From Phycisphaerales bacterium (GTDB taxonomy: Bacteria > Planctomycetota > Phycisphaerae > Phycisphaerales > SM1A02), in assembly GCA_044355685.1 (NCBI GenBank), contig JBIKXP010000001.1:1-49622 (forward strand): a stretch of DNA of 49,622 nt, read 5' to 3'. Every line of letters begins with the position of its first letter. The stretch's first letter is position 1. Positions 18,001 to 21,000 of this stretch are shown here, piece by piece. Position numbers: made by a program.

Positions 18001-21000
18001 GAGACGGCGCGCCTCGCGGGCGAGGAACTCGGAGTCATCGAGCGCACCCGCCTCACCGGAATCAAGTCGCTGAACTCGCGCGACAACGCCGTGATCGCGA
18101 CGACCGGCTCGACGGATCCGGACGTGGCGGCACGCGCCGAGACCGACTGGCGTGCGGCGACGGAGGACTGGGAGCGTGAACTGCAGGCGGTTCAGGAGGC
18201 GCTCTTCCGCTCGAAGAGTCCGTCGCTCGGCATCATGCAGCTTTGGGCGCTGACGCGGCTCTTCGGCGCATCCGGCTTCCGTGCCGGAGTCGACGTCGTC
18301 GTCGAGCTGCTGGGCGGGGTGACGGATCCGGCCGAGCCGAACGAGTTCGAGCGGTGGGAGATGCTTCCGTCGCTCGACGCCGGCGAGCCGGACGACGTTC
18401 TCCCTCGCGTCCTCGGACGCGCTGGCATCTTCGGGGCCGCGCCTTCGGTCGACTCCGCGACGTCCATCGACCGCGTCGTCCGCAGCAAGGTCGGCGACCT
18501 GCAGGGGTCCGAGCGCGGAACGAAGTCGCTCGCCGCGCTCAAGCAGGAGGTCGCCGCGATCGACGACGAGCGGATCGTGACGCTCGAGGCCCTCTATCGC
18601 GAGACATCCCAGCGCATCGAGGCGCTCCAGTCCGCGGCCTCGCGCGTGGGGATCGAAAGCAGTTCGCGCCTCCTCGAGGCGTGCCGCGTGCTCGCATGGC
18701 GGGCGGCGGAGATCATCCGTACGGAGGCGCCGGAGCTCTTCTCCGCCGCACCGGCCGAAGGCGCCGCCGGCGCCGCGCTGCCTGCACAGCAGGGGGGAGG
18801 TGTGGTGGTCGATGTCGCAAACGCCGAGAACGCCTATCTCATCGCGCGCGAGCGGAAGATGCGCGAACTCGAGTCGATCGGCTCGTGGTTCCGCCGCTTC
18901 GAGCCGCACAACCCGATCGGATACGTGACGCCCGCGCTGGTGCGTCGCGCGGGGCTCGACCTGCCTTCGCTTCTGCTCGAGCTCTGCAACGGAGCCGGCC
19001 TCACCGACGGCGACCGCACGAAGGTGTTTCAAGCGCTTTCGGTCGCCGAGCCCGCGCCGCCGGCAGAGGGCTCGTCGGGTAGCTGAACGTTCCAGGTAGC
19101 TGAACGTTCCTCGAGATCGAGGAGATCGGAGCCGCTCGATGGCATCAGGACAACATGACGCTGCCCTCGGCGCCGACGACGACATCGGCCGGGCCCTCAT
19201 CGGCCGTCCGACGAACATCCTCGTGATCGGCGACTTCGGTGGCGAGTATGTCGACAGCGCGATCGAGGATCGCGCACCGCGGAGGGCGGTCGACGTCGAT
19301 GCGCTCCTCGGAGAGATCGCGCCGAGGGTCCGGGTGCGGGTCGACGATCTCTCGAGCACGGACGACTCGCTCGTCGACACGGCGCTCACGTTCCGCAGGC
19401 TCTCGGATTTCTCCCCGGCCGCGATCGAGGCCGCCGTTCCGGCGATCACGCGTGCTCGCGGTGGTTCGCACGGCAGCGTCGCGGAGCGGAGCGGCACCGA
19501 CCTCGAGCGTGCGATCGCCGCGGCCTTGCGCGGCGCGGCGGCGCCGCCCCCGGGCGATGGCGACGGACAGGCGCGCGCGGAAGCGCAGCTTGCGCTTGTG
19601 CGCGGCGTTGCGCGCCTCGTCTCGCTCGAGCGGTCGTGGCTCGGGCTTTCACGCGTCCTAGACGCCGCGCAGACTGCGCGACACGCCTGCGAGGTCTCGA
19701 CCCTCGATCTGAGCGCACGCGAACTCTCGCGCGAACTCGCGCAGATCGACGCAGGCGGCGAATCCGCCCTCGCCACGATCCTCGATGCGCTCTCCGCCGA
19801 CGCCGAGACCCGGCCGGATCTCATCGTCGTCGACCACCCTCTCGGCTTCTCTCCCGATGGCGTCGCCGCGCTGCGTGGTCTCGCGCGGCTCTCGATGGAG
19901 TCGGCCGCTCTCGCGCTGGCGTCGCTCGACCCCGCCGCCATCGTCGCCGAGCCGACGTCGGGCCCAGCGGCGGCATCGGCTCTTGCGCGCCTCCTCGACG
20001 AGCCGACGTATGCCGGGTTCCGTGCGGTTCGCCGCGAGCCATCTGCGGCGGTTCTTGCAGTCGTCGCCTCGATGGTGGAGCGCCCTCACGAGCACGCGCC
20101 TTCCGCAAAATGGTTCCAGAGCGGTGCGAGCGCGCTGTGCGAGTCGCTCGTCGCTTCGGGCGAGACATCGCTTCGATTTGGCCGCACCGGTGTCCGGTGT
20201 CCGATTCCCGCGACGGCCGTCGCATCAGGCCCGAGCGGCCCCTCTTCGTCCGAGGTTTCCGACACGCTTGCAGCACGCGGTCTGATCGGATTCGTCCGCG
20301 ATGTCTCCGGCGCGATCCACGTGGGCCCAAGCGCCCCGGTCGTGCTCGATCCGCCGCGCATGGTCGGAGGTCCCGACGAGGCCTCTCGCGCCGCGGGTCT
20401 CGATGTTCGGACGCGGCTCGCCCTTTCCAGGCTGGTGCGTTTGGCGTCCATTGCCACACGAAAGACGGGCGCTCCCGGCCGGGATGCCGGGTCGCTGGGG
20501 GCCTTCGGTTCCCTTCTCGCCTCCACCCTCTCCCCGGAGGCCGGAACGCTTGTCGGGGAGGGAGCCGCGGTGACGGTCTGCGCAGGGTTCGACGGCGTTG
20601 ACGAGCGGTCGCTGCGCCTCGAGATCGCGCTCGCCGCGCGTGGAGGGGGCGTTGGGGCGCTCGCGCCGACGAAATCGCAGGAGCTTCCCGTGGCGTTCGA
20701 GGTTCGCTGCGGGTGCTATCCGCTGGCGTAGGCCGAGGGGCCGGGCGGGAGGCTTGGCTGCGCAATACCTGCGGCTACGCAAGGACTTGCGGCGACGCAG
20801 GGGCTTGCGGCGACGCAGGGGCTTGCGGCGCCGCGCGCGGATTTTGCCGCAACTTTGGCTGATCGAGTGAGGAACCGCCGCGGATTTGTTGTGTATTCAA
20901 TGAATGACGCTCAGGGGACTGTTCCGCGATTTGAGCGCATTCCGTTATCATCGCGTTCCCAAAGGGGCAGATTGCCCTTGTTTCAACCGAGGAGATTGAC

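Follow-up and report, generated by a model that had tools for sequence, protein, structure and literature searches.

The sheath of type VI secretion systems (T6SS) is regarded as a uniform polymer built from TssB-TssC heterodimers, in which the gp25-like C-terminal domain is the part of the subunit that accepts linker strands; phage and pyocin sheath subunits use both N- and C-terminal arms (as known for pyocin). Here we describe a gene, located within a complete T6SS locus, that encodes a TssB-TssC-like protein in one single chain. It lies at 19139..20731 (+) of a 49,622-nucleotide (nt) stretch of Phycisphaerales DNA (GenBank assembly GCA_044355685.1, contig JBIKXP010000001.1; the whole stretch is hereafter called the window), between a short tssA-like gene and the canonical tssB-tssC pair, and its product of 530 amino acids (aa) is referred to below as the fusion.

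The TssB N-terminal and the TssC C-terminal strands of T6SS sheaths (the linkers) extend to two subunits in the neighbouring ring on the baseplate side; TssE is similar to the inner domain of the sheath and has been proposed as the acceptor of the first-ring linkers (PMC5813253). In the Vibrio VipA-N3 mutant the previous ring is joined by the VipB linker only, and the sheaths assemble on baseplates without contracting (PMC5813253). Loci of extracellular contractile injection systems (eCIS) carry several sheath paralogues, one of which, Pvc4, makes a single ring that connects a gp25-like adaptor and the bulk sheath through exchanged strands (PMC12546770, PMC6899500). The sheath of the Photorhabdus virulence cassette (PVC) begins with one Pvc4 ring, which exchanges strands first with Pvc9, a gp25-like protein, and next with Pvc2 (PMC12546770).

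Compared with canonical TssB/TssC sheaths (VipA/VipB, HsiB1/HsiC1; PDB 3J9G, 5N8N, 5URW), the fusion is alike in core, collinearity, fold, C-terminal strand and (by prediction of the fold) gp25-like domain, but consists of one chain instead of two, lacks the TssB linker strand together with the TagJ tail, and has domain 3 (the handle for ClpV and TagJ) reduced to one helix in a linker. Moreover, it is ~44 aa shorter in the TssC body, evolves faster, shows a weaker codon bias, and misses the NCBIfam equivalogs and VipB_2. While canonical TssB is a separate chain of ~160 aa with C-terminal domain-3 helices, the fusion is covalently continuous and its alignment ends at TssB 131 of 162. Phage and pyocin sheaths (T4 gp18, R-pyocin; PDB 3J9Q, 6U5B) share its single-chain topology, with an N-terminal segment in the TssB role and no ClpV-handle domain (Foldseek against the pyocin sheath: E 4e-7, 499 aligned columns), yet the sequence of the fusion is clearly of TssB/TssC lineage, and its gene belongs to a T6SS locus with a two-chain sheath of its own. 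The eCIS paralogues (the Pvc4 'sheath initiator' with Pvc2/Pvc3; Afp2/3/4) offer the parallel of several sheath paralogues per locus (three at the window locus too); however, they are single-chain phage-type sheaths of secreted particles, not of a T6SS, and share only the fold with the fusion. With TssE/gp25 the fusion has in common a gp25-like module (predicted, in the fusion, to accept strands), the potential to bridge baseplate and sheath, and a codon usage of the TssE/F/G kind, but TssE is a separate 160-aa protein already present at the locus, whereas the fusion is a full sheath protomer with a donor strand of its own.

In the open reading frame (ORF) listing of the window, the gene runs from an ATG to a stop codon at 20729-20731, precisely where the preliminary description of this DNA had placed it. 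The G+C content of the window is ~68-70%, so long spurious ORFs are common; the frame of the fusion shows a coding signature (G+C at the three codon positions, GC1/2/3, of 0.76/0.58/0.79), and, above all, because its orthologues are conserved we regard it as a real gene despite this background. A search with the VipA and VipB profiles, proposed in the preliminary description, recovered both families above their Pfam gathering scores: VipA (PF05591) at aa 24-104 (profile positions 27-111 of 155, E 1.3e-9, 38.4 bits, gathering score 24) and VipB (PF05943) at aa 154-312 (profile positions 18-177 of 301, E 1.6e-7, 31.1 bits, gathering score 27). The NCBIfam models matched the same two families far under their equivalog cut-offs (TIGR03358, 34.1 vs 97.25 bits; TIGR03355, 19.9 vs 271.5 bits), and PF18945 (the C-terminal VipB_2, gpW/gp25-like) gave no Pfam match to the fusion at E <= 1. 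By BLASTP, aa 52-103 aligned with residues 66-121 of the adjacent TssB (E 4e-7) and aa 144-309 with residues 77-245 of the adjacent TssC (E 1e-5). An alignment of the family (A1), made of the window protein and eight relatives, was compared by hhalign with small TssB and TssC alignments, which placed aa 21-113 on TssB 31-131 (probability 99.0%, E 7e-18) and aa 146-457 collinearly on TssC 79-437 (probability 99.1%, E 5.5e-19), and a PDB profile search with the fusion matched Myxococcus TssB, Vibrio VipA, Pseudomonas TssC1 and the Azotobacter sheath. All seven blocks that had previously been aligned by eye fall inside the BLASTP, hhalign and Pfam alignments with their register unchanged, and the reported shortfall of ~140 aa amounts to 139 aa (162 + 507 - 530).

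The model obtained with AlphaFold2 from A1 (a monomer built on a nine-sequence alignment) had a pLDDT (predicted local distance difference test score) of 77 and a predicted TM-score (pTM) of 0.83, with disordered stretches at aa 1-11, 108-140, 342-348, 404-412 and 503-518. When this model was compared with the PDB by Foldseek, TssC/VipB/IglB chains came first (E 4.7e-10 to 3e-7, 397-485 aligned columns, TM-score of 0.56-0.67 normalised to the target), followed by the single-chain sheaths of pyocin, of the antifeeding prophage (AFP), of PVC and of the Streptomyces contractile injection system (CIS), the AFP, PVC and CIS matches comprising sheath and baseplate chains; the 22 PDB matches at E <= 1e-3 were all contractile-sheath chains (probability 1.00). 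Since the Foldseek alignments cover whole TssC chains, the fold appears to extend through the C-terminal gp25-like domain despite the missing PF18945 match. In this fold comparison, a kind of check that had also been proposed, T6SS sheath large subunits were the best matches, and profile, profile-profile and fold evidence all agree with the original reading of the ORF as a strongly diverged TssB-TssC fusion-like protein. We are nearly certain that the fusion is a functional single-chain homologue of the T6SS sheath protomer that is kept by selection.

As for its origin, sub-profiles of the TssB-like and TssC-like parts were run against fused, canonical and local proteins. The TssB-like sub-profile of the fusion family scored Myxococcus TssB (41.9 bits) and Vibrio VipA (36.1 bits) above the adjacent TssB (25.6 bits), and because of this ranking the TssB-like part is not a recent local duplicate of the neighbouring tssB. 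The top matches of the TssC-like sub-profile were GC-rich, orphan, short TssC-like proteins (e.g., P0034; proteins are labelled P and loci L throughout), a ranking that is probably a compositional effect.

Conservation along the protein was expressed, region by region, as the mean pairwise identity across the fusion family (regions are delimited in Table 1). The weakly conserved N-terminal tail occupies the place of the TagJ-binding segment and N-terminal linker beta-strand of canonical TssB, and no counterpart of this linker strand (of the 'R-V-x-h-x-Y/F' type; 'RPARVVFDI' in the local TssB) was found in the fusion, where the hhalign alignment starts at TssB 31. After the TssB-like core, a junction of 39 aa stands in for sheath domain 3 (TssB 132-162 and TssC 1-78 are unaligned). 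The linkers flanking its helix reach only 25% (aa 107-118, many indels) and 41% identity (gapped), while the helix itself can still be made out in L012 and L013, members with 34-38% identity. On shuffling of ungapped segments, the score of the junction helix against TssC aa 20-31 ('EFKDLIEDALKG') was reached by 11 of 300 and 6 of 300 shuffles in two pairs and was not significant in two others, so that its correspondence to the N-terminal ClpV-docking helix of TssC (the LLDEII / EFASLL position) is only suggestive.

Within the TssC-like part, most of the ~44-aa deficit relative to TssC falls in the middle region, whose loops at aa 342-348 and 404-412 are of low confidence in the model. The gp25-like domain was modelled with helices at aa 423-443 and 450-472 and strands at aa 477-485 and 491-501 (pLDDT 82-94), and its acceptor hairpin contains six invariant residues. 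It is followed by a linker (aa 503-517) that is disordered in the model and hardly conserved (22% identity, many indels), and then by the terminal strand (aa 518-530; modelled as a strand at 518-529), which has 74% identity and in which C526, Y527, P528 and L529 are invariant. The C-terminus is collinear with that of TssC ('FEVRCGCYPLA' vs 'SVHLVGKLPKAS', i.e. '...GSVHLVGKLPKAS'), with G, P and A equally spaced from the end; by alignment and model, the terminal strand corresponds to the C-terminal linker of TssC and is a putative 'handshake' donor strand. The junction helix and the terminal strand are thus the best-conserved pieces of a fast-evolving protein, each beside indel-rich linkers (22-25% identity), and such an arrangement is the pattern expected of docking motifs on flexible tethers. 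Judged by the alignments, the fusion is the equivalent of TssB plus TssC without the TssB N-terminal linker strand and TagJ-binding tail and without nearly all of domain 3; what remains, besides the junction helix, are the inner sheath domains, a predicted gp25-like acceptor domain and the flexible C-terminal linker with its strand.

The fusion is not confined to the window. A word-indexed search of 5.8 billion proteins returned nine clusters (44-54% identity besides its own cluster, all 527-561 aa), and an exhaustive hidden Markov model search of 1.84 billion representatives added two more distant full-length members (P0010, E 1e-68; P0011, E 3e-64) that are 34-38% identical to the fusion. 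In total, ~11 lineages at 33-92% identity were recovered, in which every ORF is intact, and start, length and C-terminus are conserved; the family alignment has 101 invariant columns and all of its indels are in frame. The family is known from Phycisphaerales (Planctomycetota) metagenome-assembled genomes (MAGs) and freshwater metagenomes, all uncultured: a profile scan of genome contigs found two loci only (both from Phycisphaerales MAGs of Lake Mendota), and a scan of metagenome contigs with TssC found only two short contigs, neither reaching the position of the fusion. In every contig long enough to show neighbours, the gene order was TpsA-like - small ORF - sigma factor - TssA-like - fusion - TssB - TssC, continued in the longer ones by TssC2 - TagJ - TssE - TssF - TssG - ClpV. 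The TssA-like gene was the upstream neighbour in every related contig that extends that far, and for L012, a distant member, homology of both the TpsA-like protein and the small ORF to their counterparts in the window was confirmed. The survey of relatives that had been suggested therefore yielded the same fused architecture across all these lineages, with a fixed synteny.

Selection was assessed through the ratio of non-synonymous to synonymous substitution rates (dN/dS, Nei-Gojobori method). For the fusion it was 0.36 between L001 and L015 (dS 0.20; ~79 non-synonymous vs 71 synonymous changes, p 2e-8 against neutrality), 0.34 between L003 and L014 (dS 0.12; ~48 vs 46 changes, p 8e-7 against neutrality), and 0.25-0.36 in pairs with dS of at most ~1.0, so that the test for purifying selection called for in the preliminary description came out positive (dN/dS ~0.35, p ~1e-7). 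The other genes of the L001-L015 pair had far lower values (TssB 0, TssC 0.023, TssC2 0.033, TssE 0.019). In terms of amino-acid identity between the window and L001, the fusion reaches 45%, compared with 94% for TssB, 92% for TssC, 80% for TssC2 and 81% for TssE, and TssA reaches 70% (window vs L003/L015); the fusion thus evolves like TssA, not like the polymer. It is kept by selection under a constraint that is much weaker, or more variable, than that on the core of the machine, and is TssA-like in this respect.

These data bear directly on the possibility, raised from the outset, that the gene is a decaying duplicate or an artefact of assembly or gene calling that joins two genes. The strong divergence from TssB/TssC, the scores below NCBIfam cut-offs, the lowest GC3 and the drifted, Ala/Arg/Gly-rich composition would fit such an origin, but the ORFs are intact in all 11 lineages and in independent assemblies, the indels are exclusively in frame, the 101 invariant columns and a dN/dS significantly below 1 indicate constraint, the synteny is conserved, the fold is predicted with confidence, and separate canonical tssB and tssC genes lie downstream. 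A chimeric assembly is excluded, since JGI, ENA, Logan and NCBI assemblies all contain this protein cluster. We consider both a pseudogene in the making and an artefactual joining of two genes as refuted, their residual probability being negligible.

Codon usage served as a proxy of abundance. With a codon adaptation index (CAI) referenced to TssB/TssC/Hcp (hence including TssB and TssC themselves), the fusion had the lowest CAI (0.50) and the lowest GC3 (0.79) among the 24 genes scored. Bulk or high-turnover parts ranged higher (TssB 0.74, TssC 0.76, Hcp_b 0.85, ClpV 0.73, VgrG 0.69), and the baseplate genes TssE/F/G (0.52-0.57) as well as TssC2 (0.56) were close to the fusion. This lowest codon bias, along with the 269-nt gap that separates the gene from tssB (vs 52 nt to tssA), disfavours (as an indirect argument) a role as bulk polymer. 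The codon bias jumps across the 269-nt gap (20732-21000; GC3 0.79 to 0.92), which suggests a separate, stronger promoter for tssB-tssC within it; a scan of 16500-21600 for sigma-70 promoters and terminators yielded a single terminator-like site (minus strand) and no promoter, the latter being unsurprising for a planctomycete.

The T6SS in which the fusion is embedded can be assigned to the TagJ/ClpV1 (H1-like) class, because its TssC carries EFKDLI at the position of EFASLL in Pseudomonas HsiC1 and LLDEIM in Vibrio VipB, the N-domain of its ClpV carries N6/R7 and D90, and TagJ is encoded as well (class and motif positions after PMC4239648). Both this class and the short TIGR03363-type TssA of the window are reminiscent of Pseudomonas H1, for whose TssA1 an association with the baseplate has been described (PMC5813253; PMC4969574). 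Three TssC-like proteins are encoded at the locus, as the preliminary description had counted: TssC, TssC2 (which has VipB and VipB_2 and is 24% identical to TssC from end to end) and the fusion. Extra sheath paralogues (TssC2 and the fusion) therefore share one locus with the bulk TssB/TssC sheath, and this arrangement is kept in relatives.

TssC2 is a full-length second TssC paralogue without a TssB partner of its own. It is 80-84% identical to its orthologues (dN/dS 0.03-0.10), has the baseplate-like codon usage given above, and may form a second specialised sheath ring. Its start is ambiguous, since it counts 529 aa in the window and in L001, and 476-477 aa as called in L003 and L015 (from 'MLIELDERL').

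We reason that the fusion is a minor structural component of the sheath, present in low copy and not part of the bulk polymer, a reading to which we give slightly more than even credence. Within it, we favour a baseplate-proximal initiator or adaptor ring that would act together with the short TssA, in the manner of Pvc4 and of the Afp2/3/4 set, because the protein combines a TssC-type donor strand, the absence of a TssB-type donor, an acceptor hairpin, low-abundance codons and a short-TssA neighbour; the baseplate-proximal position as such (drawn by analogy) is possible, yet doubtful. One specialised ring would be built from six copies of the fusion, and its C-terminal strands might insert into the acceptor sheet of the adjoining layer on the baseplate side (TssE or a TssB/TssC(2) ring), with its own conserved acceptor hairpin offered to the next ring of canonical TssB-TssC. 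As the N-terminal linker is absent, six strands would tie such a ring in place of twelve, and the ring could provide a distinct mechanical joint for priming polymerisation or triggering contraction, whereas the junction helix may serve as a docking peptide for ClpV, TagJ or TssA. Taken as a whole (a specialised, low-copy sheath element that includes a baseplate-proximal ring), this is our best explanation, held tentatively and at somewhat less than even confidence. The roles that the preliminary description had listed (nucleator, cap or regulator) point in the direction that is favoured here.

Several points weigh against this explanation. The location of the fusion in the assembly is an argument from analogy only, and we know of no T6SS with a heterotypic sheath. 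In the AlphaFold monomer (built from nine sequences) 77 residues lie below a pLDDT of 50, and codon bias is an indirect proxy of abundance, all the more as the CAI reference included TssB and TssC. The fast evolution and the composition (43% Ala/Gly/Arg/Pro) also fit a soluble regulator under weak constraint, a protein without N-terminal linker and domain 3 might just as well be barred from membership of a regular lattice, and the conservation of the hairpin may reflect nothing but the stability of the fold.

The same observations can be arranged differently. The fusion could be an element of the distal end or a regulator of length or termination, i.e. a cap or 'poison' subunit that sets sheath length, or the last ring under TssA. 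In this view it would join the growing, distal end by means of its C-terminal strand and, for want of N-linker and domain 3, halt or retard the addition of further subunits. Its donor strand, directed to the baseplate side (by the linker direction of PMC5813253), would suit such a place, as would its low abundance suggested by codon usage, its position adjoining tssA and the similar evolutionary rates of the two genes; furthermore, the composition of the T6SS distal end has been described as unclear in Vibrio (PMC5813253). We nonetheless find it unlikely, given that the short TIGR03363-type TssA and the TagJ/ClpV1 class resemble Pseudomonas H1, with its TssA1 described as baseplate-associated, and that a conserved acceptor hairpin would be superfluous in a terminal cap. 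Comparably improbable is a soluble, non-polymerising mimic of the sheath, acting, as a monomer or small oligomer, as chaperone, decoy or recycling factor that binds ClpV, TagJ, TssA or free TssB/TssC(2) by way of the junction helix and the C-terminal strand. It would account well for the strongest conservation residing in two short, peptide-like motifs beside disordered linkers, for a folded surface that evolves fast (45% where TssC has 92%; dN/dS ~0.35 vs 0.02-0.1), and for the disappearance of one of the two lattice linkers, but the retention of the whole two-domain sheath fold, with acceptor domain and terminal strand, over 33-92% identity is excessive for a decoy peptide, and there is no precedent.

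Very unlikely, in our judgement, is a second bulk sheath that would co-polymerise along the whole sheath with TssB-TssC or replace it (e.g., when conditions differ), so as to make a tube that resists ClpV or differs mechanically. The predicted sheath fold is complete, with donor and acceptor elements, and elsewhere it is common for single-chain TssB-TssC proteins to have a full TssC-like sequence; however, the codon bias of the gene is the weakest at the locus, where TssB, TssC and Hcp have the strongest, it evolves 5-10x faster at non-synonymous sites than TssB and TssC, it is always found with canonical tssB-tssC, and it lacks the N-linker, alteration of which makes Vibrio sheaths non-contractile (PMC5813253).

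Fusing TssB to TssC is, by itself, not unique to this family. Of the best 150 representatives in the family profile search, ~115 are single-chain TssB+TssC proteins from outside it, of 510-670 aa, which occur in long (640-670 aa), medium (with an LLDxIL junction helix) and short forms (510-540 aa, without domain 3). The short forms skip domain 3 as the fusion does, and the medium ones keep a junction helix of the LLDxIL type. The few of these proteins that carry a taxon label are Planctomycetota (e.g., MBX7105277.1, Gemmataceae; MCZ6792293.1, Planctomycetota) and are annotated simply as 'contractile sheath large subunit'. The single-chain proteins from outside the family are nearer to canonical TssB/TssC than the fusion (E 1e-40 to 1e-80 to the local TssC, vs 5e-5), several keep the N-terminal 'RVxLxY' linker strand, and all three that were checked match VipB_2, which the fusion does not. 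In the four genomic contexts checked (4/4), no T6SS gene lay within 10 kb, and the genes stood alone among housekeeping genes.

Members of this class were noted among proteins P0013-P0155 and in the loci L007-L009 (gene at 9019-10590 in L007), L011 (8276-9865), L018 (10001-11656) and L019 (10001-11656); in the four contexts checked, the neighbours were asparaginase/cysS, kdpC/glycogen phosphorylase, an FHA-domain protein upstream, and secDF. Short GC-rich TssC-like proteins of 410-435 aa, which start at the VipB core without a TssB part, were also noted (P0034 at 10001-11233 of L016, P0037 and P0038); P0034 is likewise an orphan and adjoins a major facilitator superfamily (MFS) transporter.

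The preliminary description had known of no characterised covalently fused sheath protomer, and this holds for the literature searched, where we found no description of a natural TssB-TssC fusion or of a planctomycete T6SS sheath; the sequence databases differ, in that fused proteins are common there, notably in metagenomes, and form a large class of single-chain TssB+TssC proteins that is apparently undescribed. What is unusual is a strongly diverged, linker-trimmed fused paralogue that has become fixed as the third or fourth sheath-type gene of a canonical T6SS locus.

The broadest formulation would be a heterotypic T6SS sheath, in which the fused paralogue (without N-terminal linker and without the ClpV/TagJ handle), a locus-embedded member of the larger single-chain class, makes up a single special ring, probably the one seated on the baseplate and perhaps with TssC2 as a partner, as well as a six-strand joint for priming or triggering; we put it forward as a speculative proposal that we doubt holds in full. 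If true, the fusion would be the T6SS counterpart of the Pvc4 initiator ring of eCIS, and T6SSs would, like extracellular injection systems, use specialised sheath paralogues at set positions. The fusion would also represent a natural experiment on the need for the N-terminal linker and the recycling domain, and the repeated re-fusion of two T6SS sheath genes to a phage-sheath topology bears on the evolution of the split and on the engineering of single-chain sheaths. As the family is small and restricted to uncultured freshwater Phycisphaerales, the immediate impact is limited.

The features of the locus and the parts of the fusion are given in Table 1. The minus strand of the window additionally encodes two Hcp genes, a PAAR-like toxin, a DUF2169 protein and VgrG.

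Table 1. Genes of the T6SS locus in the window and regions of the fusion protein (invariant positions and identities refer to the fusion family)
Feature	Position	Strand	Evidence and remarks
TssK fragment	8-625	+	
TssM	1504-6015	+	
TpsB/TpsA two-partner pair	7471-16605	+	
Small ORF	16663-17067	+	
Sigma-70-family factor	17064-17951	+	
Short TssA-like gene, 52-nt gap to fusion	17893..19086	+	TIGR03363 aa 79-366, E 4.8e-10; weak ImpA_N match
Fusion	19139..20731	+	Pfam VipA + VipB, hhalign to TssB + TssC, AlphaFold, Foldseek, homologous clusters
Fusion, N-terminal tail, aa 1-21	19139..19201	+	33% identity, 2/21 positions invariant; AlphaFold helix 9-21, low to medium confidence
Fusion, TssB/VipA-like core, aa 22-106, motifs NxLVxGDFGGE, VRVRV, FRxLxDF	19202..19456	+	64% identity, 25/85 invariant, no indels
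Fusion, junction, aa 107-145, disordered indel-rich linker with one amphipathic helix	19457..19573	+	pLDDT <50 at aa 108-140
Fusion, junction helix, aa 119-133 'GTDLERAIAAALRGA'	19493..19537	+	80% identity, 8/15 invariant; highest conservation in the protein
Fusion, TssC/VipB-like N-terminal half, aa 146-312, motifs QLxLVR...ERxWxGL, RPDLxVxD, FAGFRxxR	19574..20074	+	PF05943, BLASTP, hhalign; pLDDT ~90
Fusion, TssC-like middle, aa 313-412	20075..20374	+	42% identity, lowest of the folded parts; gapped but collinear with TssC 246-391
Fusion, predicted C-terminal gp25-like domain, aa 413-502	20375..20644	+	54-61% identity, no indels; hairpin motif 'FDGxDERSLRLE'
Fusion, C-terminal arm: linker aa 503-517 and terminal beta-strand aa 518-530 '...EVRCGCYPLA'	20645..20728	+	
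tssB, 162 aa, 269-nt gap after fusion	21001-21489	+	Pfam, NCBIfam equivalog cut-off passed
tssC, 507 aa	21561-23084	+	Pfam, NCBIfam equivalog cut-off passed
tssC2	23214-24803	+	VipB + VipB_2; NCBIfam 194 bits vs cut-off 271.5 (below)
tagJ/impE	24803-25672	+	Pfam
tssE, ~160 aa	25669-26151	+	Pfam
tssF	26173-28194	+	Pfam
tssG	28158-29315	+	Pfam
clpV	~29398-32073	+	Pfam; ClpV N-terminus read directly

Some further observations concern the surroundings of the gene. At 19078-19110, a stretch of ~16-17 nt ('GGTAGCTGAACGTTCC[A]') is repeated perfectly in tandem across the tssA stop codon (TGA, 19084-19086), in the 52-nt gap that precedes the start codon of the fusion. The segment 7471-17951 (+), inside the T6SS locus and upstream of tssA, carries the TpsB/TpsA pair (a ShlB-type transporter of 979 aa and a repeat-rich TPS-domain exoprotein of 2030 aa) and, downstream of TpsA, a conserved ORF of ~110-134 aa followed by the sigma-70-family factor. 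The TpsA-like gene, the small ORF and the sigma factor are syntenic even in L012 (2-5661); the small ORF and the sigma factor may constitute a dedicated sigma/anti-sigma pair that controls the locus. In L015 (8089-9219), TagJ/ImpE was called as two ORFs (250 aa without domain match and 117 aa with ImpE) in place of one of ~288 aa, which may be a frameshift or an assembly error. The two Hcp genes differ in codon usage (33934-34500 (-), GC3 0.84, CAI 0.58; 43505-44005 (-), GC3 0.95, CAI 0.85), and this suggests that one encodes the bulk tube protein and the other a specialised or effector-associated one, a division that parallels the bulk/specialised split of the sheath.

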